A program made the position numbers and the translations under genes. Source: Escherichia phage Carena. From it: a stretch of 39,283 nucleotides of DNA. Below, piece by piece: positions 208-39,236 of this stretch. Numbering within the stretch: position 1 is the stretch's first letter; each line of letters starts with the position of its first letter. The notes beneath the pieces are model-generated. The model was given only the letters and a program-made list of their open reading frames with translations. It was not told where the DNA came from and made no database searches. The stretch lies in sequence record OR769031.1. One strand, given 5' to 3'.

Positions 208-469
208 CGATAAATCTTTGATTCAATTCCTTGAGATGCTGGACACTGAGATGGCTCAACGTATGCTTGCTGACTTGCAGAACGATGAACGACGCACACC
301 TCAACTGTACAACGCAATCGGGAAACTATTAGAGCGCCACAAGTTCCAAGTCTCCAAGTTACAGCCAGACCGTAACATCCTTGGTGGACTGGCAGATGGA
401 CTCGAAGAGTACCAGAACTTGGTAGGCTCCGATGGTCTCACTGAAGATGAGAAGTACACGCTTAACTGA
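200..469 (+). CDS. 18: Terminase small subunit / DNA maturation protein A (gp18-like), 89 aa
   Basis: SD GAAGGAGGG upstream of ATG at 200; same length and position as T7 gp18; overlaps holin stop. Confidence 0.85.
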   Translation: MSNDKSLIQFLEMLDTEMAQRMLADLQNDERRTPQLYNAIGKLLERHKFQVSKLQPDRNILGGLADGLEEYQNLVGSDGLTEDEKYTLN

Positions 470-475
470 TGGTAA

Positions 476-517
476 TACTCAAGGCCACTACATCTAGTGG
501 TCTTTATGGATTATCAA
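476..517 (+). promoter_or_regulatory. RNase III-type processing hairpin (R18.5-like)
   Basis: Motif ACTCAAGG...GG(T)CTTTATGGATTA shared with six other intergenic sites in this window (CAAGGTC...GGCCTTT..TGAT); matches T7 RNase III site architecture. Confidence 0.6.
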
Positions 518-567
518 CACAACTCACGGTGACTCTACGTGAAATCTGAGAAATGGGGAGGGTAGTT

Positions 568-1011
568 ATGCTCAAGAATTTAAAGAGCTACGCCATCGCT
601 GTGGCCTTTGCCTTGGGGATGACCCTTGCGTACAACCACGGCTATGACAAGGCTAACACTAAATGGGAACAGGAGGTGCACAATGAGTACGTTAAGAAAG
701 TTGAGGCGACTGCGGATAAACAGGCTGCTCTCAATGAAGTCTCACGACAATACCAAGAAGACCTTGCGGCGCTGGAAGGCAGCACTGATAGGGTCATTAA
801 TGATTTGCGTAACGATGGTAAGCGGCTGCGTGTCAAACTATCAGCCACCTCACGAGAACTCCAAGCTAACGGTGGATGCCTCGTTGATGGTCGAGCCGAA
901 CTTGACGAAGAGTTTAGTAAGCGTCTTATCGGAGTAACTCAAAGAGGGGATGCGTGGATTAAAGCGCTCCAAAATACAATAACTGAAATGCAATCTAAGA
1001 AGGAGAAATAA
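568..1011 (+). CDS. 18.5: Rz-like inner-membrane spanin (i-spanin), 147 aa
   Basis: SD GGGGAGGG 5 nt before ATG at 568 (the 553 ATG lacks an SD); N-terminal TM helix then long charged coiled-coil; similar to recalled T7 gp18.5. Confidence 0.85.
   Translation: MLKNLKSYAIAVAFALGMTLAYNHGYDKANTKWEQEVHNEYVKKVEATADKQAALNEVSRQYQEDLAALEGSTDRVINDLRNDGKRLRVKLSATSRELQANGGCLVDGRAELDEEFSKRLIGVTQRGDAWIKALQNTITEMQSKKEK
683..937 (+). CDS. 18.7: Rz1-like outer-membrane lipoprotein spanin (o-spanin), embedded in +1 frame of Rz, 84 aa
   Basis: AGGAGG 6 nt upstream of ATG at 683; basic n-region, hydrophobic core, lipobox VSGC, proline-rich mature part; begins MSTLR like T7 gp18.7; entirely inside the Rz gene. 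Confidence 0.8.
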   Translation: MSTLRKLRRLRINRLLSMKSHDNTKKTLRRWKAALIGSLMICVTMVSGCVSNYQPPHENSKLTVDASLMVEPNLTKSLVSVLSE

Positions 1012-1255: not shown

Positions 1256-3013
1256 ATGTCTACTCAAGCAAACAAGAATGCGCTCATCGTGGCGCAACTT
1301 AAGGGTGACTTCGTGGCCTTCCTGTTCGTCTTATGGAAGGCTCTGAACTTACCTAAACCAACCAAGTGTCAGATTGATATGGCACGTACACTCGCTAACG
1401 GCGACCACAAGAAGTTTATCCTTCAGGCGTTCCGTGGTATCGGCAAGTCCTTTATCACCTGTGCGTTCGTCGTGTGGGTCTTATGGCGTGACCCTCAACT
1501 TAAGGTGCTCATTGTGTCTGCCTCTAAGGAACGTGCGGACGCTAACTCCATCTTCATCAAGAACATCATCGACCTCTTACCGTTCCTCTCTGAGTTGAAA
1601 CCTCGACCGGGACAGCGAGACTCCGTGATTAGCTTCGATGTGGGATTGGCTAAACCAGACCACTCTCCCTCTGTTAAGTCTGTAGGTATCACTGGTCAGT
1701 TGACTGGTAGCCGTGCTGACATCATCATCGCAGATGACGTTGAGGTTCCTGGTAATAGCTCTACGAGTTCTGCCCGTGAGAAGCTCTGGACGTTGGTAAC
1801 TGAGTTTGCTGCACTACTTAAGCCGCTGCCTACCTCTCGTGTTATCTACCTTGGCACACCTCAAACCGAGATGACGCTCTACAAGGAACTTGAGGATAAC
1901 AAAGGGTACAGCACAGTAATCTGGCCAGCACAGTATCCTCGCAATGATGCTGAGGCTCTCTACTATGGGGACCGCTTGGCTCCGATGCTTAAGGCTGAAT
2001 ACGATGAAGGCTATGAGTTACTTCGTGGTCAACCTACTGACCCTGTTCGATTCGACATGGATGACCTCCGTGAACGTGAACTCGAATACGGTAAAGCTGG
2101 CTACACGCTTCAGTTCATGCTTAACCCAAACCTTAGTGATGCCGAGAAGTACCCGCTACGACTCCGTGACGCTATCGTGTGCGCTGTGGACCCTGAACGT
2201 GCCCCATTGTCTTACCAGTGGTTGCCGAACCGTCAGAACCGCAATGAGGAACTCCCTAACGTTGGTCTGAAGGGTGATGACATCCATAGCTTCCATACGT
2301 GCTCTTCTAGAACCGCTGAGTACCAGTCTAAGATTCTCGTCATTGACCCTAGTGGTCGTGGTAAGGATGAGACCGGGTATGCAGTCCTCTACTCACTGAA
2401 CGGTTACATCTACCTGATGGAAGTAGGAGGGTTCCGTGGTGGCTACGATGATGCTACCCTAGAGAAGCTCGCTAAGAAGGCCAAGCAGTGGAAGGTACAG
2501 ACAGTCGTCCATGAGTCCAACTTCGGTGACGGTATGTTCGGTAAGATTTTCTCTCCGATTCTCCTGAAGCACCATAAGTGTGCCTTAGAGGAAATCCGTG
2601 CTAAGGGCATGAAGGAGATGCGAATCTGCGATACTATCGAGCCATTGATGGGTGCACACAAGCTGGTCATTCGTGATGAGGTTATCCGTGAGGACTATCA
2701 GACTGCTCGTGACCTTGATGGGAAACATGATGTCCGCTACAGTGCGTTCTATCAGATGACCCGTATGACCCGTGAGCGAGGCGCTGTGGCACACGATGAC
2801 CGCATTGATGCTATCGCATTGGGTATCGAGTTCCTTCGTGAAGGGATGCTTGTGGATAGCCGTGTAGGTGAAGAAGAGATGACCCTTGAGTTCCTTGAAC
2901 ATCACATGGAGAAACAGACCATTGGTGGTGATGCTATTCATAGCTACGAGGCTGGTGGCGTGGACATCTACTACGAGGATGATGGAGACTCTAGCTGCTT
3001 CATTGAGTGGTAA
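1256..3013 (+). CDS. 19: Terminase large subunit / DNA maturation protein B (gp19), 585 aa
   Basis: SD AGGAGG; near-identical N-terminus to recalled T7 gp19 ([30 protein letters not shown]); ATPase and nuclease regions conserved. Confidence 0.97.
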
Positions 3014-3100
3014 TAGATAAGTATGCGGGAAAGGTGCATAGGTAAGCACTTAGTACCGCTACGTTACCATTAAGTAACTTACTGATATACATGAAGAAAT

Positions 3101-3123
3101 TAATACGACTCACTATTGGGAAG
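3101..3123 (+). promoter_or_regulatory. Phage RNAP promoter (phiOR-like)
   Basis: TAATACGACTCACTATTGGGAAG; 22/23 identical to T7 class III consensus; same position as T7 phiOR upstream of gene 19.5. Confidence 0.8.
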
Positions 3124-3137
3124 GGCACCCTAAGACA

Positions 3138-3157
3138 ACTTAAAGACACTTAAAGAC
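3138..3157 (+). repeat. Tandem decamer ACTTAAAGAC x2
   Basis: Direct tandem repeat read in the sequence; resembles the short AAAG-containing repeats near T7 genome ends. Confidence 0.5.
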
Positions 3158-3281
3158 TGCATATGCAAAGTGCATACTTAGTGACTAACTCTTAGAGACC
3201 CTTACAGTGAGGGATGATGGTAATAGTAATTACATCCCTAACTATCAGTGTAACCATCAAGTATAACAAGGAGGACGCTCT

Positions 3282-3437
3282 ATGCGCTTACTATCCGTGC
3301 TAAAGACACTGGCAACGCATCGAGTGACTTACAAATTTCTCGTTGTACTTGCTGCTTCCATTGGTCTCGCATCTAGTGCTGAACACATCGGTGAACTGGA
3401 GACTCTGCTTTGTTCTCTACTCACTTGTGTTCCTTAG
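3282..3437 (+). CDS. 19.5: gp19.5-like small protein, 51 aa
   Basis: SD AAGGAGG 7 nt upstream; not in the ORF track (<60 aa); conserved HRVTY.FLVVL motif as in T7 gp19.5; last gene before the genome end. Confidence 0.7.
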   Translation: MRLLSVLKTLATHRVTYKFLVVLAASIGLASSAEHIGELETLLCSLLTCVP

Positions 3438-3465
3438 ACTGCTCATCGGCGCTTAGTGCGCTCTT

Positions 3466-3503
3466 AGTGATTATGGTCGATATACATCTTCCCCATAATC
3501 ACT
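3466..3503. repeat. Perfect 11-bp inverted repeat AGTGATTATGG / CCATAATCACT with 16-nt spacer
   Basis: Read directly; lies in the noncoding terminal region between gene 19.5 and the early promoters. Confidence 0.7.
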
Positions 3504-3521
3504 GAGAGAGAGAGAGAGAGA
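3504..3521. repeat. (GA)9 dinucleotide tract
   Basis: gagagagagagagagaga read directly, immediately after the inverted repeat. Confidence 0.9.
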
Positions 3522-3552
3522 CGCTAACAATGGTCATCTTCTCTTTATGTCT

Positions 3553-3572
3553 ACTATAAGAGACTATAAGAC
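3553..3572 (+). repeat. Tandem decamer ACTATAAGAG / ACTATAAGAC
   Basis: Direct repeat, followed by ACTTAAAGAGAGG; same motif family as 3138-3157. Confidence 0.5.
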
Positions 3573-3611
3573 CACTTAAAGAGAGGCTTTAAGATTATTT
3601 GAGATTGAGTG

Positions 3612-3640
3612 TTGACATTGATAATGGCTTATGAGACTAT
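3612..3640 (+). promoter_or_regulatory. Host sigma70 early promoter (A1-like)
   Basis: TTGACA, 17-nt spacer, GACTAT; first of four evenly spaced TTGAC(A/T) elements upstream of gene 0.3. Confidence 0.55.
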
Positions 3641-3746
3641 AGCAACCGTTGAGAGACACAACGCTATCAACTACCAGACAAGACCGCGAGTTATCTGGTA
3701 ATGCTGAAGGGTCTCAAGTAGTCATCAACCAGACGTAAGAAAGTGG

Positions 3747-3775
3747 TTGACTCAACGAAAGAAACAACGTAGTAT
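3747..3775 (+). promoter_or_regulatory. Host sigma70 early promoter
   Basis: TTGACT, 17-nt spacer, TAGTAT. Confidence 0.7.
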
Positions 3776-3836
3776 AGCAGTCGTCAACAACTGGTCGCCC
3801 TCTGAAACAACATGAGGTGTCACGGTGAGAAAGCAG

Positions 3837-3866
3837 TTGACAAGTAGCAACAACAAGATGTAAGAT
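3837..3866 (+). promoter_or_regulatory. Host sigma70 early promoter (A2-like)
   Basis: TTGACA, 18-nt spacer, TAAGAT; same hexamers as T7 A2. Confidence 0.65.
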
Positions 3867-3996
3867 GTACGACATGCAATAAGAGAGAACGGATAGGAAC
3901 TGCGAAACCTGCCGGATACTCGCCAAGGATGAGGCACTGCTTATTGGAGTATGCAGACACGATAAGCACCACGTTATCTTCTAGTCAAATTAAGTG

Positions 3997-4025
3997 TTGA
4001 CACGGTAACGAAAGCACGATAAGAT
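3997..4025 (+). promoter_or_regulatory. Host sigma70 early promoter (A3-like)
   Basis: TTGACA, 17-nt spacer, TAAGAT; downstream ...GTGAGTCACCACACTGAAAGGTGATGCGGTCTAACGAAACCTGACC matches recalled T7 A3 leader. Confidence 0.7.
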
Positions 4026-4120
4026 GTACCACGAAATGACGGAACAGTGAGTCACCACACTGAAAGGTGATGCGGTCTAACGAAACCTGACCAAAGACGC
4101 TCTTTAACAATCTGGATAAT

Positions 4121-32712: not shown

Positions 32713-35700
32713 GTGGATAAGTATAACCCGAACGAACCGCATGAATATGATGCGTTATTTCAACAAGCTGCTGACACACATGGAGTCTCCTATGGCCTTC
32801 TTCGGAAGGTCGGTTGGGTAGAGTCCCGATTCAATCCGAAGGCCCAATCCAAAACCGGGCCACGGGGTGTTATGCAGTTCACTAAGGCAACTGGTCAGGC
32901 TTATGGCCTACTATCTGATGAGGACTTCAACGACCCGGCTAAGTCTATTGATGCTGGCGCTCGATACCTTGCAGACCTCGTTAAGAAGTACAATGGTGAC
33001 GAACTGAAAGCTGCCCTAGCGTACAACCAAGGTGAAGGCCATAATGGTAAGCCACAACTAGAAGCCTACGATTCCGGTAACTTTGCTGGGATTGGGGACG
33101 AAGGGCGAAACTATATCCGTTCACTTCTGGATGTCGCTAAGTCTCCTAAGAGTGGTGACATCGAGTCATTCGGTGGCATCACCCCAAAGGGTAAAGGGAT
33201 TCCGTTTGATGCTGCGATGAGCGGTATCGGGAAGAAAGGAAAGGTAACAACTGAACTCCCTGAGTCTCACTCAATGTCCTTTCAAGGTAAAGAACAGGCC
33301 GCTCCCAATCAGCCGTTCGGTAAAGACTATTGGGAAGCCAAAGGAACTACACTCGACGAAGCTAACGAGCGTTCAACCTTCTTCGGATTCGGTAATGCTG
33401 CTGAAGCAGAACTCTCCAACTCAACCTTGGGTGTGGCCTTCCGTGCTGGTAAGCGTGATAATGGTTTCGATGTTGTTACTGATGTACTTCAACCGACACG
33501 GTTTAACAGCCACATTTGGTCGCCTGAAGAACTCGAAAAGATTCGCAACGAAGTGAAGAACCCGGCGTACATGAACGTAGTGCTTGGAGGTTCCTCTGAG
33601 AATCTGGATGAACTCATCAAGTTAGCCAACGAGAACTATGAGTTGGACGCTAAGGCCGCTGATGCTGGACTTGGTGCGAAACTATCTGCTGGGATTATCG
33701 GTGCTGGTGTGGACCCTCTGACCTACGTTCCAATCGCTGGGACTGCGGCTAAAGGATTCAAACTGGTGAACAAGGCGCTGATTGTTGGCGCACAAGCAGG
33801 TGCTCTTAGCGTTGCCTCTGAGGGTCTGCGTACATCGGTGGCGGGTGGTGATGCTCACTACGCAGAAGCTGCCCTTGCTGGTATGCTGTTCGCTGGTGGA
33901 CTGACTGCTATCGCTGACGGTGTTGCCGCAGGTCTCCGTAAGTCTGGTGCTGAACAGATTGAGAACCCGTTTGCTGCTGCACAGATGCGCTTTGAGGCCC
34001 GTGAGACTGCCCGTAACACTGGTGGGCATGACGCAAGTCGAATGCCTCCTAGTGAAGACCGAGTGTTCTCACAGCACAACGGCGTTGAGTATTCACCTCT
34101 TGAGACCGAACCGGGTGCCGTAGTGTTGCGTGATGGTTCCATTATCAGTGACACCAACTTAGCTAACCCGATGACAGCCAAAGAGTTCGCCGAGGTGGAC
34201 CCTGAACGCGCTGCGTGGGGATTGCCTATGCGTGGACTGAGTGAAATCGGCTTGAGGACTTTACGCTCTGAACATGCCGAAATCCGTGGTCTCGCTAAGG
34301 ACTTAGTGCGTTCACCTACAGGGATGGAGTCTGGCTCACATGGTAAGTTCGGTGCTACCGCATCTGACATCAAAGAGCGACTGCACAGTACCAACCAGCG
34401 AACCTACAATGACCTCTATGCTGCAATGAAGGAAGCAATGGCTGACCCTGAGTGGTCCGTTGGTATGTTCAAGCGTAGTGCTCAAGGTGCCCGTCAGGAA
34501 ATCTATCGCCGTGCTGCTATCGCTATTGAGCGTCCAGAACTTCAAGCCAACTTAACGAAGGCTGAACGTAAGGTGATGGACATCATGAAGGAACACTTCG
34601 ACCTCAAGCGTGAGATGATGGAGAACCCGGCTATGTTCGGTAACAAGGCAACTTCCATCTTCCCTAACAGTCGTCACAAAGGGACTTACGTTCCTCATGT
34701 GTACTCACGGGAAGCCAAGCAGTTGTACGCACAGGCTCTTGGTGGTACTGACGGTTTACAGGAAGCTATTGCTGCAAGCTGGATGACATCGTACCGTTCA
34801 CGTCCTGAAGTTAAGGCCCGTGTGGATGAGATGCTGCTAGAGCAGTTACGGGCATCTCAACCATCAGGTAAGACTGCGGGTACTACACCTAATAAGCACT
34901 CTTCTGTAGACACAGCCAGTTACCAGATGAAACTGGACGATGCGGCTACACAGGCAAGTGATAAGGTAGCAGAACTAAAAGACGTACTTACCAACGCTGA
35001 GAAGCGAGTTGCGGACCGTGAAAGGAAACTCCAGAACTCCAAGGACAGACTGGCTTCGCATGAGGCTAAGCTGAAGGAGTTAGAAGAAAAACTAGCTGCT
35101 AAACCTAATAGCAAAACCATCCCTGTTAAGATTGAGAGCCGGAAGAAGATGATTGAGACCCAGAAGTCTCACGTCCGTGTTAACACAGATCGTCTCGACT
35201 ACATGAAAGGACAGGTTACTAAGGTCCAAGACAGAATCACCAAAGCCACCTCCGAAGCTGAAGAAGCCGCCTCTGCTGTCAAAGGTGCACAAGCTGCTCC
35301 GGCTAAACCTTCAGAGCGCCGGAAGTTTGACACAGACGAGAAGGTGGAACCAAATGTAGACGAAGAGGCTGTGCTTAGTCAGATGGCTGAGAAGTACGCT
35401 ATGGACAAGGCTTATGGCATTGCGAAGACCGATGAGTTCAACTCTTCAAGTGTCATCGACGATAACATTGAGGGTCTCGTAGGGATTGAGAACAACTCGT
35501 TCCTTGAAGCCCGTAACCTGTTCGACTCTGACATGCCAATCACCTTACCGAATGGACAACAGTTCTCTGTGAATGACCTCCGTGACTTCGATATGAAGCA
35601 TGTGATGCCAGCCTATGACCGCCGTATTGATGGTGACATCGCTATCATGGGAGGTACAGGAAAGACTACTGCTGAACTCAAGGATTCCATTATGGCTCTC

Positions 35701-37164
35701 GATAAGAAGTCTGAAGGCAAAGGCACAATGAAAGGTGAAGTGGAAGCACTCAAGGATACCGTTAAGATTCTCACAGGCCGTGCTCGACGCAATCAGGATA
35801 CTATGGGTGACACTATGGTTCGCGCTCTGTCCGATATGTCCTTCTTCACGAAGAACGCATACATGGGCTTGCAGAACCTAACTGAAATCTCTGGTATGTT
35901 GGCTAAGGGTAACGTTCGTGCGATGCTGCATGGTATTCCGGCACTGCGTGACTTAGCATTCCGCAACAAGCCAGTCTCCGGTAGTGAACTCAAAGAACTC
36001 CACTCCATGGTGTTTGGTAAAGAGTTCGACCAGTTAATCCGACCGACTCGTCAAGACATCATTCAGCGACTCCGTGAGTCCACTGATACACCTGATGTTG
36101 CAGCTAAGGTTGTTGGTACGGTTAAGCACACCACTCAAGAGTTGGCTGCTCGCTCTCCGTTCACTAAGTTCCTCAATGGTACTTCCAACTACATTCTGGA
36201 CATGGCCCGTCAAGGTGTCATGGGAGATGTGGTAACTCATGCCATTACTGGTAAGGGTGCCAACAAGTGGATTAAAGGCGACATGCTGAAATCTGCGAGT
36301 ATCTCTAAGGAACAGTGGGAAGGCATTCAGAACCTCATCCGTGAGAACGTCACTCAAGGTGCTGACGGCAAGTACACCTTCAAGGACAAGCGTAAGTTGG
36401 CTAATGACCCGCGAGCTATGGACCTGTGGCGACTGGCTGATAAGGTAGCTGATGAAACCATGCTGAGACCACACAAGGTGTCCTTACAGGATTCCCATGC
36501 GTTTGGCGCTGCTGCTAAGTTGGTCCTTCAGTTCAAGTCTTTCGTAATCAAGTCGATGAACTCTAAGTTTATCCGCTCCGGTAACGAAGCCTTTAAGAAC
36601 CATAGGGCTATGGATATGGCGCTAACCTACGCAATCTCTGGTGGAATTGCTGGTTCCTACTACGTGGCACAGGCCCACTTGAAGGCTGCTGGTCTACCTA
36701 AAGAGCAACAGAAGGACTACTTGAAGAAAGCTCTCGACCCTAAGATGATTGCCTACGCTGCGGCCTCCAGAAGTTCACACTTAGGGTCTCCGTTGAGTAT
36801 CGCTAACTTCGTTATGGGTGCTGCGGGTTATGACCAAGGTCTTATGGTTCGCTCTACGATTCTACCGAAAGGTGATGACAAGCGTGAGCGCAATAAGGCA
36901 GCGACTTCTCGTGACATGGGTGATTCAATTATGGGCGCTATTGGTGAACAGATTCCCGCTCTTGGCTTCGCTGGTGCTACTCTTGCTGCTGGTCGAAATG
37001 CTTATGGTGTCCTTACGGCTCCCAATAAAGTGACCGAGCGTGAGATGATGACTGGTCTGATGAATGCTCATCGTGAGATGGTTCCGAACGACCCAATCAC
37101 TCAACAGATGCTCATTAAGTTCTATGAGGCTAACGGTGTTCACCTTAAGTCTGACAAGAAGTAA
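32713..37164 (+). CDS. 16: Internal virion protein D with N-terminal lytic transglycosylase domain (gp16), 1483 aa, GTG start
   Basis: GTG start 6 nt after AGGAGG; N-terminus MDKY...GVSYGLLRKVGWVESRFNP.A.SKTGPRGVMQFTKATG (SLT motif, catalytic Glu) as in T7 gp16; about 165 aa longer than T7 gp16 because of an internal coiled-coil insertion. Confidence 0.95.
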   Translation: MDKYNPNEPHEYDALFQQAADTHGVSYGLLRKVGWVESRFNPKAQSKTGPRGVMQFTKATGQAYGLLSDEDFNDPAKSIDAGARYLADLVKKYNGDELKAALAYNQGEGHNGKPQLEAYDSGNFAGIGDEGRNYIRSLLDVAKSPKSGDIESFGGITPKGKGIPFDAAMSGIGKKGKVTTELPESHSMSFQGKEQAAPNQPFGKDYWEAKGTTLDEANERSTFFGFGNAAEAELSNSTLGVAFRAGKRDNGFDVVTDVLQPTRFNSHIWSPEELEKIRNEVKNPAYMNVVLGGSSENLDELIKLANENYELDAKAADAGLGAKLSAGIIGAGVDPLTYVPIAGTAAKGFKLVNKALIVGAQAGALSVASEGLRTSVAGGDAHYAEAALAGMLFAGGLTAIADGVAAGLRKSGAEQIENPFAAAQMRFEARETARNTGGHDASRMPPSEDRVFSQHNGVEYSPLETEPGAVVLRDGSIISDTNLANPMTAKEFAEVDPERAAWGLPMRGLSEIGLRTLRSEHAEIRGLAKDLVRSPTGMESGSHGKFGATASDIKERLHSTNQRTYNDLYAAMKEAMADPEWSVGMFKRSAQGARQEIYRRAAIAIERPELQANLTKAERKVMDIMKEHFDLKREMMENPAMFGNKATSIFPNSRHKGTYVPHVYSREAKQLYAQALGGTDGLQEAIAASWMTSYRSRPEVKARVDEMLLEQLRASQPSGKTAGTTPNKHSSVDTASYQMKLDDAATQASDKVAELKDVLTNAEKRVADRERKLQNSKDRLASHEAKLKELEEKLAAKPNSKTIPVKIESRKKMIETQKSHVRVNTDRLDYMKGQVTKVQDRITKATSEAEEAASAVKGAQAAPAKPSERRKFDTDEKVEPNVDEEAVLSQMAEKYAMDKAYGIAKTDEFNSSSVIDDNIEGLVGIENNSFLEARNLFDSDMPITLPNGQQFSVNDLRDFDMKHVMPAYDRRIDGDIAIMGGTGKTTAELKDSIMALDKKSEGKGTMKGEVEALKDTVKILTGRARRNQDTMGDTMVRALSDMSFFTKNAYMGLQNLTEISGMLAKGNVRAMLHGIPALRDLAFRNKPVSGSELKELHSMVFGKEFDQLIRPTRQDIIQRLRESTDTPDVAAKVVGTVKHTTQELAARSPFTKFLNGTSNYILDMARQGVMGDVVTHAITGKGANKWIKGDMLKSASISKEQWEGIQNLIRENVTQGADGKYTFKDKRKLANDPRAMDLWRLADKVADETMLRPHKVSLQDSHAFGAAAKLVLQFKSFVIKSMNSKFIRSGNEAFKNHRAMDMALTYAISGGIAGSYYVAQAHLKAAGLPKEQQKDYLKKALDPKMIAYAAASRSSHLGSPLSIANFVMGAAGYDQGLMVRSTILPKGDDKRERNKAATSRDMGDSIMGAIGEQIPALGFAGATLAAGRNAYGVLTAPNKVTEREMMTGLMNAHREMVPNDPITQQMLIKFYEANGVHLKSDKK

Positions 37165-37235: not shown

Positions 37236-39236
37236 ATGGCTAACAAGATTCGTACTGTGATGACTTACCCGCTGAATGGTGCCGTGAACTTCACGATTAC
37301 CTTTGATTATCTGGCTCGTAAGTTCGTCCAAGTGACACTTATTGGTAAAGACCGTAAAGAACTGGTTCTCAATCAGGACTACCGTTTTACCAGTAAGACT
37401 CAAATTACAACTACCCGTGCGTGGACTGCCGCTGATGGCTACCAGATGATTGAGATTCGTCGATTCACTTCGGCTACCGACCGTCTGGTTGATTTTGCTG
37501 ATGGCTCAATCCTCCGTGCATATGACCTGAACATCTCGCAGATTCAAACCCTGCACGTTGCCGAAGAAGCACGAGACCTCACTGCGGATACCATTGGTGT
37601 CAACAATGATGGTCACTTAGATGCTCGTGGTCGTAAGATTGTAAACTTGGCGTATGCCACAAATGACTATGATGCTGTTCCTTTAAAGCAGGTTAAAGAG
37701 CGTGAATCCTCTGCATGGAATGCTGTAACAAAGGCTAACGAACATGCCGACCGCTCCAATAAGGAAGCAAACCGTTCTCGTGATGAGGCCAACCGTGCTC
37801 AACGTGAAGCTGACCGCTCAACTCAACAGGCAGGTGTCTCTACGCAACAAGCAGTTGAGTCCAAGAAGCAAGCTGATCGTTCCAACTCTGAGGCTAACCG
37901 AGCTAAAGGATATGCTGATAGTATGACCGCAAGTGTCGCTGAGGCTAAGAAGCAAGCTGACCGTTCCAACTCTGAGGCCAATCGTGCCCGTGATGAGGCC
38001 AATCGTGCTGCCGGAGAAGTGACTAAAGCTGCTGCTGAGGTTGCCAAGGCTGCTGCACACGTTGAGACCGCTAAGGGACATGCAGACCGTGCGAACACTG
38101 AGGCTAATCGCTCCAAAGGTGAGGCTGACCGTGCTAAGTCTGAGGCCGACAAGTTAGGCAGCATGAATGCACTTGCAGGGGCTATTGAAAGTGTATCAGG
38201 CAGTGATGTACGCTTTAAGGGTAAAGTAAGTGGGCGCAGTCTGACTCTACATAATGATGCTAAAGGCGCTGGGACTCAACCAGTAGACCAAGTGTGGAAC
38301 CAGTGGCGTGGTCAGGACTCTAAGGAGACTGTGTGGGAACAGTGGATTCAAGCTGGGACAAAACGAATGGACTACTATGTGTTCACTAACACCGACCCGG
38401 CAACGTGGCCTGAAGGTCGTTCCAATAGCAAAGGACACCATAACTTCTATGGTGACGTTCTGTTTGCTGGTGGTAACGTCGAGACGCACGGGAACCTTAA
38501 GGTAAACGCAGTTGAGTCTAGACATAACGTGTTCATCTCCGACCAAGCCGCAAGTTTCAAGAGTAACACACATGGTGGTAGCTGGAACCAGTGGACCGGT
38601 AGCTTGAATCCAGACCTACAGCATGATATTGCTGGACAAGGGGACGTTGCATATCTCCTTGAGAGGGCTACAATTTGGGGCAAAGAACACCTGTATGCCA
38701 AGTGCTTATATAACAACGGCACAGGCGCTAACTTCTTTATCAGGCAATATCTGCGAGGCACCTATTTCGATCTACGCTCCGATGGTGTCCTTTCCTGCTC
38801 TTCTGGTTGGAACATCCCACCCGATGGGAACCTGTACATCAAGAAGTACAACTCGTACATTGATGCTTGGGTGAATAAGCGTCTTAGCGAACATGCTTAC
38901 AACAAAAGCGAGACCAACAACTTAGTCAATGGACGCCTAACACAAGGTGCTGCTGATGGTCTATACATCCGTAAGAATGCTGGTTGGTCTGAGGTTTGGA
39001 AAGGCCCTGCTGGTGGTGGTGTTTCAGTTGGTCTCTCACAGGATGTTCGTTGGAGAACCATCTGGATTCAAACTCAAGGCAAATGGAACCCTGTGGAGAT
39101 TGGGGACGATGGGGCTTACTACATTTCGTCGATGGGCGGTTGGTTGACCTTTACAATCTCCAACAACGGGCGTACATTCCGTAACGATGGTGATAGGTCT
39201 TCTGTTCCTACACGCATCCTTGTGCGTAACAACTAA
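37236..39236 (+). CDS. 17: Tail fiber protein (gp17), 666 aa
   Basis: N-terminal ~150 aa conserved with T7 gp17 (ADGY..IE.RR.TS.TDRLVDF.DGSILRAYDLN..QIQT.HVAEEARDLT.DTIGVNNDGHLDARGR.IVNLA); repetitive coiled-coil shaft; divergent distal domain; C-terminus SVP...V.N. like T7. Confidence 0.95.
   Translation: MANKIRTVMTYPLNGAVNFTITFDYLARKFVQVTLIGKDRKELVLNQDYRFTSKTQITTTRAWTAADGYQMIEIRRFTSATDRLVDFADGSILRAYDLNISQIQTLHVAEEARDLTADTIGVNNDGHLDARGRKIVNLAYATNDYDAVPLKQVKERESSAWNAVTKANEHADRSNKEANRSRDEANRAQREADRSTQQAGVSTQQAVESKKQADRSNSEANRAKGYADSMTASVAEAKKQADRSNSEANRARDEANRAAGEVTKAAAEVAKAAAHVETAKGHADRANTEANRSKGEADRAKSEADKLGSMNALAGAIESVSGSDVRFKGKVSGRSLTLHNDAKGAGTQPVDQVWNQWRGQDSKETVWEQWIQAGTKRMDYYVFTNTDPATWPEGRSNSKGHHNFYGDVLFAGGNVETHGNLKVNAVESRHNVFISDQAASFKSNTHGGSWNQWTGSLNPDLQHDIAGQGDVAYLLERATIWGKEHLYAKCLYNNGTGANFFIRQYLRGTYFDLRSDGVLSCSSGWNIPPDGNLYIKKYNSYIDAWVNKRLSEHAYNKSETNNLVNGRLTQGAADGLYIRKNAGWSEVWKGPAGGGVSVGLSQDVRWRTIWIQTQGKWNPVEIGDDGAYYISSMGGWLTFTISNNGRTFRNDGDRSSVPTRILVRNN
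37740..38160 (+). repeat. Coding direct repeats within the tail-fiber shaft (period about 84 bp)
   Basis: AAGAAGCAAGCTGA(T/C)CGTTCCAACTCTGAGGC at 37864 and 37948; CGTGATGAGGCCAA(C/T)CGTGC at 37779 and 37989; encodes repeated ADRSNSEANRA units. Confidence 0.75.

Follow-up and report, generated by a model that had tools for sequence, protein, structure and literature searches.

gp16 of Escherichia phage Carena, the internal virion protein D of T7-like phages, contains an in-frame cassette that recurs at one and the same site in four genera of the Studiervirinae and is predicted to fold as a long helical hairpin. With moderate confidence, we interpret it as a horizontally exchanged accessory hairpin in a permissive gp16 loop, serving as a host-interaction or counter-defence add-on and not as part of the DNA channel. 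The features on which this reading is built are collected in the table.

Features of gp16 and of its inserted cassette in phage Carena; positions refer to the window, i.e. the whole stretch of DNA analysed (39,283 nt)
Feature	Position	Strand	Basis or remark
gp16 (internal virion protein D, ejectosome component)	32713..37164	+	ORF, 1483 aa, GTG start
SLT (lytic transglycosylase) domain, N-terminal, aa 15-120	32755..33072	+	Pfam PF01464, 93.5 bits vs cut-off 21.3
Whole inserted cassette, aa 709-888 (linker, hairpin, linker)	34837..35376	+	absent from T7 and ErnstBeyeler
Left linker, type A (QLRASQPSGKTAGTTPNKHSSVD)	34837..34911	+	predicted disordered, pLDDT <50 for aa 719-730
Helix 1 of the hairpin, aa 734-796 (63 aa)	34912..35100	+	AF2 helix, pLDDT 92-98
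Tip half of the hairpin, aa 757-828	34981..35196	+	most conserved part, net basic
Hairpin turn KPNSKT (6 aa; then IP), aa 797-802	35101..35118	+	AF2 break between helices
Helix 2 of the hairpin, aa 803-860 (58 aa)	35119..35292	+	AF2 helix, pLDDT 92-98
Right linker, type B (AAPAKPSERRKFDTDEKVEPNVDEEAVL)	35293..35376	+	predicted disordered, pLDDT <50 for aa 863-876
Equivalents of the T7 gp16 DNA-clamp mutations G737, I754, E761 (Carena G902, I919, E926)	35416..35490	+	residue mapping, just downstream of the cassette

To our knowledge, gp16 is the least understood component of the ejectosome, and no one has yet resolved its cytoplasmic part once ejection has taken place. Judged from sequence and gene order, the backbone of the Carena protein is an unambiguous orthologue of T7 gp16: the two align over their full length with 65% identity, and phmmer against the PDB matched the T7 gp16 chains 7eyb, 7k5c and 6yt5 with E=0 over two separate segments (1-710 and 880-1479). 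Outside the insert, Carena gp16 is 97% identical to that of the Berlinvirus ErnstBeyeler, and the surrounding gene order (gp13-gp14-gp15-gp16-gp17) is annotated in the same way in ErnstBeyeler and T7. The likeness to T7 gp16 (PDB 7EYB, 7K5C, 6YT5) covers the SLT domain, colinearity, gene order and a basic C-terminus, while the 180-aa cassette, which in Carena lies between the positions of T7 residues 715 and 717, is missing from the T7 protein. Carena gp16 measures 1483 aa, against 1318 aa in T7 (3957 nt, NC_001604) and 1315 aa in the closest insert-free relative; a published size table of gp16 homologues ends at 1337 aa (PMC8954989). The T7 protein is packaged in the virion and then ejected into the cell (PMC8954989).

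Alignment with T7 and ErnstBeyeler resolved the additional sequence into a single contiguous block, flanked by ARVDEML (aa 702, nt 34816) and MAEKYAMDKAYGI (aa 891, nt 35383) and including KVAELKDV at aa 751. T7 E715 pairs with Carena E710, and T7 H717 with Carena P880. In the DNA, the match to ErnstBeyeler does not extend past approximately nt 34836 and resumes at about 35377-35403, and a similarity of 94-98% to the Teseptimavirus JacobBurckhardt and to Escherichia phage P483 starts at 34837. The block stands in place of some 12 aa of native linker, for a net gain of 165 aa over T7 and 168 aa over ErnstBeyeler. A preliminary description of this DNA had proposed an insertion of roughly 165-180 aa in the gp16 homologue at 34845-35385. 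In codon terms, that interval extends between the third bases of codons 711 and 891. These alignments confirm the insertion, which the interval covers almost exactly, and an equivalent segment, looked for in T7 by alignment, is not there.

The insert is predicted to form an antiparallel two-helix coiled-coil hairpin of about 125 aa between disordered linkers of about 25 aa each. Single-sequence AlphaFold2 (AF2) returned two long helices at pLDDT 92-98, which appeared again at 82-95 in a larger-context AF2 model (481 aa, built with nine aligned sequences). The mean pLDDT of that larger model was 60, a value at which it cannot demonstrate that the insertion site is a surface loop. Hydrophobic residues follow a 3.5-residue periodicity in helix 1 (a-positions Q A V L V L L L L; p=0.002, 5000 shuffles) as well as in helix 2 (a-positions I I V L V I A V; p=0.003, 5000 shuffles). 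Together with the AF2 helices, this periodicity upholds the heptad-like coiled-coil character that had been noted earlier. From helix length, we estimate that the hairpin would be about 8-9 nm long. In the turn and just after it, K797, P798, S800, K801, T802 and P804 are invariant in 10 of 10 aligned modules, and the tip half is near-invariant across 12 phages, surface positions included. The net charge of aa 765-834 is +8. A Gre/DksA-like secondary-channel hairpin was ruled out, because the tip, with the sequence KPNSKT, is not acidic but basic or neutral.

The cassette is rare. We found it in 19 of 50,697 phage records, among which about 1281 have the gp16 flanks, and in an even sample of 60 gp16 records it was missing from 58 and present in two. 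T7, BA14, K11 and about 98% of the relatives do without it. Some ten records matched at two separate places and may contain other large inserts. Carriers include P483, Enterobacter phage PZJ0206, Escherichia phage JacobBurckhardt (Bas65) and Shigella phage A7, and the insert passes without comment in published descriptions of phages that bear it (A7, PMC8427288; the BASEL phenotyping). The gp16 proteins of P483, PZJ0206 and JacobBurckhardt have the same hairpin at the same site, with cores that share 90-94% amino acid and 94-97% DNA identity with that of Carena. Divergence of the cassette is far out of step with that of the gene around it: between Carena and JacobBurckhardt the core has 94% DNA identity and a dS of 0.12, against 62-68% and a dS of 1.7-1.8 in the gp16 flanks, and between Carena and P483 the core dS is 0.066 against a flank dS of 0.32-0.40. 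Such comparisons indicate that the cassette is an in-frame module that moves laterally and was transferred recently.

The cassette is mosaic in its linkers. The left linker of Carena has 97% DNA identity to that of JacobBurckhardt and is unrelated to the type-B left linker of P483 and A7. Its right linker has 96% DNA identity to that of P483, is common to the GNAT-bearing phage pO103 and to A7, and is unrelated to the right linker of JacobBurckhardt and PZJ0206. Carena therefore combines a type-A left linker (JacobBurckhardt/PZJ0206-like) with a type-B right linker (P483/A7/pO103-like), a combination seen in none of the database records examined. Across phages, the left and right types occur in varying pairings.

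Selection on the cassette was assessed from pairwise and pooled comparisons. Its median omega is 0.13, falling to 0.07-0.08 in the most diverged pairs (dS 1.1-1.6), and pooled pN/pS is 0.09 at the tip, 0.30 at the base and 0.81 in the left linker, a contrast that depends on a few divergent Kayfunavirus copies. These values point to purifying selection on the cassette, strongest at the hairpin tip; the high conservation of the cassette is in part due to its recent spread. They also bear on the idea of a functionless passenger, an in-frame insertion that is tolerated and spread by hitch-hiking or recombination with no benefit to the phage. The rare and patchy distribution of the cassette would fit such a passenger, as would the near-neutral linkers, a loop that tolerates unrelated inserts and the lack of a detectable homologue of known function. 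We nevertheless consider it improbable: selection is strong even at surface positions of the tip, the cassette has been kept in four genera, and autonomous mobility machinery is absent, which leaves a selfish spread unexplained.

Searches for relatives returned little. HMMER against 1.84 billion representatives, a set clustered at 50% in which an insert-bearing gp16 can hide behind insert-free representatives, gave two matches only: P0001, which is a fragment of gp16, and P0007, a repetitive coiled-coil protein that matched by composition. No relative of the module is therefore detectable beyond gp16. A word-indexed protein search yielded a handful of fragments and no full-length gp16, a scan of IMG/VR only four isolates already known, and a scan of JGI metagenomes no match to the module. 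Among GTDB genomes the sole match was an Agrobacterium Wzz/GumC-like (PCP-like) protein with 28% identity over 110 aa, which we judged to be a coiled-coil analogy and discarded as a relative. Pfam and PHROGs gave only generic coiled-coil families below threshold, and neither these two nor the HMMER search detected a homologue of known function for the hairpin.

Several other explanations were rejected. An intron, intein, homing or transposon origin was ruled out, since the insert is translated in frame with an omega of 0.13; terminal or target-site repeats were limited to 12-nt chance repeats, the sole Rfam match to the insert was at chance level (16.9 bits, E=0.89; gathering score 34), and the opposite strand has no ORF of at least 80 aa between 34394 and 36034. 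Comparison with the rest of the Carena genome spoke against an origin by duplication. Conservation of the DNA is not explained by an embedded phage promoter, as the promoter 12-mer AATACGACTCAC, present in 11 copies in the window (among them 29325 and 37167), never falls within the cassette.

The hairpin is not the only guest at this position. About 12 other phages (15 records) have a GNAT-like domain at the same gp16 site, and in Shigella phage A7 the hairpin and the GNAT-like module stand in tandem. The GNAT-like module scores 23.8 bits with Pfam PF00583 (cut-off 20.7) when scanned alone and 19.6 bits in the full protein, and in pO103, A7 and PP74 its sequence includes a putative acetyl-CoA-binding motif, R/Q-x-x-G-x-G/A, as YRRKGIAT. 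Kinship of this module with gp13/IVP-A was rejected on comparison. Overall, the site holds a linker of about 12 aa in most Studiervirinae, the hairpin in about 15 phages, the GNAT-like domain in about 12, and both in one. The presence of an unrelated domain, even in tandem, at the same site fits a cargo slot and does not fit a channel element tuned in length. Packaging of an enlarged gp16 is documented for A7, in whose virions mass spectrometry identified the 1644-aa protein (111 peptides, 72.9% coverage; PMC8427288).

In T7, the periplasmic tunnel is formed by gp15 and gp16 residues 1-228 (PMC8954989; bioRxiv 10.1101/2021.01.04.424714), and gp16-C (residues 411-1118) is modelled as a cytoplasmic hub that binds DNA non-specifically, a placement derived from low-resolution cryo-ET and biochemistry and not from a solved structure (PMC8954989). 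The insert falls within gp16-C. The preliminary description had suggested that a longer coiled coil might extend the trans-envelope DNA conduit or suit a different envelope in the host; gp16 does belong to the ejectosome, and some long helical hairpins do cross the periplasm, the colicin R-domains that turned up as fold matches being an example. Neither part of this suggestion found support. The insert lies in the hub and not in the tunnel segment, and the hairpin fold, if right, brings the chain back to its starting point, adding no path length to a conduit. As for the envelope, Bas65 JacobBurckhardt (with insert) and Bas67 ErnstBeyeler and Bas68 CarlSpitteler (without) come from the same isolation strain, E. 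coli K-12 MG1655, and phages with the insert infect E. coli, Shigella, Enterobacter, Klebsiella, Kosakonia and Yersinia, genera also infected by insert-free relatives, so that host distribution already contradicts it. Combined with the GNAT-like content of the slot, hub location, hairpin geometry and shared hosts make a longer channel or an envelope adaptation highly improbable.

A further reading is that the hairpin regulates DNA entry, altering how the gp16-C ring clamps or ratchets the leading 850 bp and tuning entry before transcription takes over. Example routes would be the addition of a basic DNA-contacting arm or a change in ring stability. The insertion site is 20 residues ahead of T7 G737, the last residue of the cassette precedes the G737 equivalent by 14 residues, and the T7 mutations G737D, I754T and E761K abolish genome-entry arrest (PMC8954989). 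Because the site adjoins this region, its location would suit a function in DNA entry equally well, and the non-specific DNA binding of gp16-C (PMC8954989) and the net charge of the tip half point in the same direction. Nonetheless, a finely tuned clamp is hard to square with a slot that accepts an unrelated globular domain; the long disordered tethers suggest an appendage, not an integrated structural element; and most relatives manage without the cassette. We regard DNA-entry regulation as unlikely. The basic character of the hairpin has also to be read in the context of the virion, where gp16 is the top ring of the core within the capsid, with DNA around it (PMC8954989), and where the enlarged A7 protein is packaged. 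The hairpin could there stabilise the gp16 tetramer of the core stack or organise DNA, with no role after ejection. This is a poor candidate, to which we give little weight: genomes with and without the insert are alike in size (about 39-41 kb), with no obvious difference in packaging, the alternative GNAT cargo points to an activity and not to a scaffold, and the narrow a-position seam suits an intramolecular two-helix hairpin, not an oligomerising bundle.

We therefore return to the accessory hairpin as our preferred reading. The cassette would be seated in a permissive loop, at T7 residues 715-717, in a region modelled as lying in the host cytoplasm, and the loop would act as a cargo slot with swappable contents. 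Since gp16 precedes the genome into the cell, the hairpin would be delivered as a ready-made appendage at the site of DNA entry, where a particular macromolecule of the host or the phage is the most likely binding partner of its strongly conserved, basic tip. By analogy with polyvalent virion proteins, its role would be host interaction or counter-defence. A bolder version of this proposal, which we put forward only tentatively and hold to be possible, not probable, is that the 715-717 loop is a general, recombination-serviced effector slot of the Studiervirinae, whose interchangeable modules (hairpin, GNAT acetyltransferase or both) reach the cytoplasm at the DNA entry portal before any phage gene is expressed and neutralise a host defence or factor acting on incoming DNA; the hairpin would then represent a new family of injected counter-defence binders, with recognition through the invariant tip.

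T7-like phages are usually held to counter host defence through early genes, such as ocr or the 0.7 kinase. Our observations raise the possibility that they may also bring pre-made effectors on a structural protein. Furthermore, gp16 appears to offer a naturally permissive loop with room for 150-330 additional residues, a candidate surface-exposed engineering site for tags, reporters and payloads delivered with the genome, or for cryo-ET labels. The system is tractable, as the BASEL collection provides near-isogenic natural pairs, Bas65 with the insert and Bas64 and T7 without it, to which the Berlinviruses add a comparison between Carena (with) and Bas67 (without). In the BASEL phenotyping, no particular immunity phenotype is ascribed to Bas65 gp16, which counts against counter-defence. 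The HXS defence paper provided no link to the gp16 insertion site.

Two sets of known systems invite comparison. The first is structural: the best Foldseek matches in the PDB were antiparallel helical hairpins with a TM of about 0.5, every E-value being above 1e-3. The colicin E3/E9 R-domain, YscO, AhlC, the Smc arm and Wzz/PCP periplasmic hairpins belong to the same predicted fold class, with two helices of about 60 residues and a tight turn, but have no significant structural or sequence kinship to the insert; the likeness appears to be an analogy of the kind typical of coiled coils. The second is functional. Polyvalent proteins, known from phages and conjugative elements, are virion-delivered multidomain conflict proteins, GNATs included (Iyer, Burroughs, Anand, de Souza, Aravind 2017, PMC5512222), in a paper that does not mention gp16. 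The resemblance lies in a large, virion-packaged protein that enters with the DNA and has swappable modules acquired by recombination (PMC5512222); in gp16, a single ejected protein holds the SLT domain and the hairpin, the latter a candidate conflict-related domain, with or without the GNAT-like module. The hairpin has no enzymatic signature. Moreover, polyvalent proteins are dedicated effector polyproteins, whereas the modules of gp16 sit in an internal loop of an essential ejection protein.

The window, 39.3 kb, is a complete-length genome of the Berlinvirus type (BA14 group, Studiervirinae), with a DNA identity of about 93-94% to Escherichia phages nasanit, CarlSpitteler and ErnstBeyeler and no exact counterpart in the phage collection. 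Upstream of its gp16 gene lie gp14 (201 aa) and gp15 (759 aa), downstream the tail fibre gene, and the protein bears an SLT transglycosylase domain at its N-terminus (Pfam, 93.5 bits). The preliminary description placed a coiled-coil insertion of about 165-180 aa in this protein, and the insertion was confirmed: window gp16 has 1483 aa against 1318 aa in T7 (NC_001604), and alignment with T7 and with ErnstBeyeler, the nearest insert-free relative (1315 aa, flanks 97-98% identical), left a single contiguous extra block, with no equivalent segment in T7. The flanking anchors ARVDEML and MAEKYAMDKAYGI start at aa 702 and aa 891, and the interval first proposed, about codons 712-891, matches the insert. 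T7 residues E715 and H717 correspond to window E710 and P880, and the T7 gp16 chains in PDB 7EYB, 7K5C and 6YT5 match (E=0) over two stretches, with residues 711-879 left out between them. DNA identity to ErnstBeyeler is 97-100% to about aa 665, falls to 92%, 82% and 70%, is gone at about nt 34837, and returns at 88% from aa 890 and at 97-100% from about aa 905. The cassette, whose boundaries were taken from alignment and DNA identity, stands in place of a native linker of ~12 aa (TLGIDPKSVTEE in ErnstBeyeler).

Coordinates of gp16, its cassettes and accompanying features (window unless another record is named)
Feature	Record	Position	Strand	Remarks
gp16	window	32713-37164	+	GTG start, 1483 aa
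Cassette	window	34837-35376	+	gp16 aa 709-888
gp17 tail fibre	window	37236-39236
AATACGACTCAC copies	window	3102, 8831, 9467, 9991, 11334, 16058, 21301, 23908, 24901, 29325, 37167
GNAT-like module	Shigella phage A7 (L003)	3626-4066		gp16 aa 876-1022
HNH endonuclease ORF	Klebsiella phage vB_VIPKPNMC04 (L009)	465-872		annotated
Wzz/GumC-like protein	Agrobacterium tumefaciens (L019)	2200-3846

All Berlinvirus gp16 genes examined (five fetched loci, L001-L005, and the window, where AGGAGG lies upstream) start with GTG; the Teseptimavirus, Przondovirus and Kayfunavirus genes examined start with ATG. The 12-mer AATACGACTCAC occurs 11 times in the window, each time upstream of genes and continuing as ...TA(T/A)TGGGA, and probably represents phage RNA-polymerase promoters; one copy lies just ahead of gp13, another directly after the gp16 stop, and none inside the cassette. 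The tail fibre protein has a long segment rich in Ala, Arg, Asn and Glu (about aa 165-310) that reiterates motifs of the type (K/E)(Q/E)ADRSNSEANRA and presumably forms the fibre's coiled-coil shaft; at the DNA level, Tandem Repeats Finder reported no repeat for it.

An AlphaFold2 model of aa 690-910 contained two helices (aa 734-796 and 803-860, pLDDT 92-98) separated by KPNSKT, with linkers of pLDDT <50 around them (aa 719-730 and 863-876). Modelling in a 481-aa context reproduced both helices and the disorder of the linkers, but was otherwise unreliable (mean pLDDT 60). The heptad-like character described earlier held as well, with a hydrophobic periodicity of 3.5 residues in helix 1 (p=0.002) and helix 2 (p=0.003; both against 5000 shuffles). 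The a-positions form a single strong hydrophobic seam (QAVLVLLLL and IIVLVIAV) and the d-positions are partly polar, so a two-stranded antiparallel hairpin is expected rather than a multi-helix bundle. As an α-helix rises ~0.15 nm per residue, helices of ~60 residues should make a hairpin roughly 8-9 nm long. Net charge is +6 for the whole module and +8 for its tip half (aa 765-834). Foldseek matches in the PDB were all long antiparallel helical hairpins, none of them significant: YscO, AhlC, the colicin E3/E9 R-domain and an Smc arm. Pfam and PHROGs gave only generic coiled-coil matches to the module, all below threshold.

A tblastn search with the cassette matched 19 of 50,697 phage records, which represent about 15 distinct phages, always within gp16 and at one and the same site. 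Carriers were found in Berlinvirus (P483, Shigella phage A7 and Enterobacter phage PZJ0206), Teseptimavirus (JacobBurckhardt, that is Bas65, NC-A and Yersinia phage vB_Yep_9), Przondovirus (Klebsiella phage vB_VIPKPNMC04) and Kayfunavirus (ST31, Kosakonia phage Kc166A and CY1); Bas105, whose record names no genus, aligns like Kayfunavirus, and Klebsiella phi1_146017 and phi1_146025 and Escherichia PH1061 and ZH4 were added by match only. In vB_VIPKPNMC04, an HNH endonuclease ORF is annotated between gp15 and gp16, overlapping the gp16 start. A query made of the flanks alone hit 1281 phage records; 58 records of an even sample of 60 had the short linker and 2 an insert, and 54 of the best 60 Berlinvirus-group records had no insert. 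These hits comprised 1291 places, so about 10 records have two, and may be gp16 genes whose inserts are too long for the two parts to be joined, as in A7, possibly of unseen module types. IMG/VR gave only copies of four isolates already among the carriers, JGI metagenomes gave no cassette match, and HMMER, run without filters on 1.84 billion representatives, found no relative outside gp16. The sole non-phage match, in GTDB genomes, was an Agrobacterium Wzz/GumC-like polysaccharide co-polymerase protein (28% identity over 110 aa) containing the exact peptide TNAEKRVAD; this likeness is probably a coiled-coil analogy, a convergence between long helical hairpins.

We then compared codons of the module core (aa 742-858) with 300 codons on each side. 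Between the window and JacobBurckhardt, of another genus, the core is 94% identical in DNA, uses the same codon for 93% of identical amino acids and has a dS of 0.12, against 62-68%, about 51% and 1.7-1.8 in the flanks. The corresponding values for P483, of the same genus, are 96.6%, 95.5% and 0.066 in the core, against 91-93%, 79-83% and 0.32-0.40. Core dS far below flank dS implies that the cassette is much younger than its backbones, and we regard this codon-level signal as decisive for lateral transfer. Linkers are mosaic too, with at least two unrelated types on the left (A, QLRASQP...; B, VNSDVFSKAEADAKLAADTENFLR...) and on the right (A, TTVGGEDTT...VQEVTMD; B, AAPAKPSERRKF...EEAVLSQ). 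The window joins left A (97% DNA identity to JacobBurckhardt) to right B (96% to P483), a combination absent from all other records examined. A self-mobile element was rejected: the opposite strand across the cassette lacks ORFs of at least 80 aa, Rfam returned a single match no better than chance (group-II-D1D4-7; 16.9 bits, gathering score 34, E=0.89), and repeats were limited to 12-nt chance ones, none flanking. No other region of the window resembles the cassette. The backbone junction falls within a conserved GA(T/C)GAGATGCTG stretch coding for DEML which, together with the lack of mobility hallmarks, points to exchange through the conserved gp16 flanks by ordinary recombination between co-infecting phages. 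The cassette is a rare in-frame module, a predicted coiled-coil hairpin on disordered linkers, recently exchanged between genera.

The same gp16 site accepts other cargo. Escherichia phage pO103 has a different insert of ~150 aa there, and A7 carries the hairpin and then this GNAT-like insert in tandem, giving a gp16 of 1644 aa. Scanned alone, the module matches PF00583 (23.8 bits against a threshold of 20.7) and contains the acetyl-CoA-type motif YRRKGIAT; none of its close relatives has a solved structure, and a relationship to gp13 was rejected. By tblastn it was found in 14 phage records (67-100% identity), always in gp16, from about 12 phages of several genera: A7, pO103, Yersinia WX2, Shigella ESh9, Pectobacterium PP74 and LET1, Enterobacter EcpYZU01 and four Klebsiella phages. 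A hypothetical protein of an Acinetobacter phage gave the fifteenth match, a weak one (32%). Type-B linkers are common to both modules, and ENFLR precedes each of them in A7 (gp16 aa 730 for the hairpin, aa 871 for GNAT), suggesting linker-mediated shuffling, for which ENFLR may be the recombination joint. ENFLR also ends the type-B left linker of P483, pO103 and vB_Yep_9. Mass spectrometry of A7 virions detected the 1644-aa gp16 (111 unique peptides, 72.9% coverage; PMC8427288), so the enlarged protein is packaged. Window gp16 can be classed as a gp16 of the T7 type in which an internal slot takes exchangeable cargo.

A longer coiled coil had been proposed to mean a longer channel or a different host envelope, and neither idea is supported. 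In T7 gp16, residues 1-156 form the transglycosylase wing, 157-228 a "molecular tape" on the gp15 periplasmic tunnel, and 243-410 and 1119-1290 putative membrane regions, and the model for 411-1118 (gp16-C) is a DNA-binding toroid within the host cytoplasm; the gp16-C mutations G737D, I754T and E761K let the whole genome enter without transcription (review by Swanson, Hou and Cingolani, PMC8954989). Pérez-Ruiz et al. describe a channel built entirely by gp15, with only gp16 residues 4-224 ordered in the complex (10.1101/2021.01.04.424714). The slot corresponds to T7 residues 715-717, and the clamp residues to window G902, I919 and E926, 14-38 residues downstream of the cassette. The insert would hence lie in the proposed cytoplasmic hub, beside the region controlling DNA entry and outside the trans-envelope conduit, a cytoplasmic placement modelled from low-resolution data. 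This topology speaks against the idea of a longer channel or a different envelope, as do the predicted geometry, in which the hairpin returns to its origin, the globular alternative cargo, and the hosts: Bas65 (with insert) and Bas67 and Bas68 (without) were isolated on one E. coli K-12 MG1655 strain, insert-bearing phages and their insert-free relatives share host genera, and receptor and immunity phenotypes are similar across the Autographiviridae of the BASEL collection (PMC8594841). The slot's closeness to the DNA-entry region speaks for a hairpin that modulates the adjacent DNA clamp or motor, the main rival to the intracellular role that we favour.

Median omega in the core was 0.13 (66 pairs), comparable to that of the essential flanks (0.05-0.24), and 0.07-0.08 for the most diverged pairs (Kc166A and Bas105, dS 1.1-1.6). 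Pooled pN/pS was 0.09 in the tip half (aa 757-828), 0.30 at the hairpin base and 0.81 in the left linker, the last inflated by pooling two unrelated linker types. In all 12 phages the tip half hardly varies, even at solvent-exposed positions and at the polar d-positions R/S/H and R/Q/N, indicating that selection preserves its protein sequence. Purifying selection is strongest at the basic tip. Such graded constraint is the pattern expected of a specific binding surface on a stalk with flexible tethers. A structural role for the hairpin, or a passenger without function, is less likely given this selection pattern and the alternative enzymatic cargo.

The cassette has been in GenBank genomes since P483 (KP090453); the publications consulted on A7, BASEL, gp16 structure and ejection-protein diversity do not mention it, and a published size table of gp16-like proteins ends at 1337 aa (PMC8954989). 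The finding is genuine and clear-cut and lends itself to experiment; the function of the cassette is a proposal. Earlier work established that gp16 is packaged in the virion and leaves it before the DNA, and placed its central part in the cytoplasm (PMC8954989); gp16 would carry the hairpin into the cell, where the tip would act on a specific macromolecule. We favour an accessory role in host interaction or counter-defence; the analogy is to the polyvalent virion proteins described by Iyer et al. (PMC5512222), a paper from which gp16 is absent.
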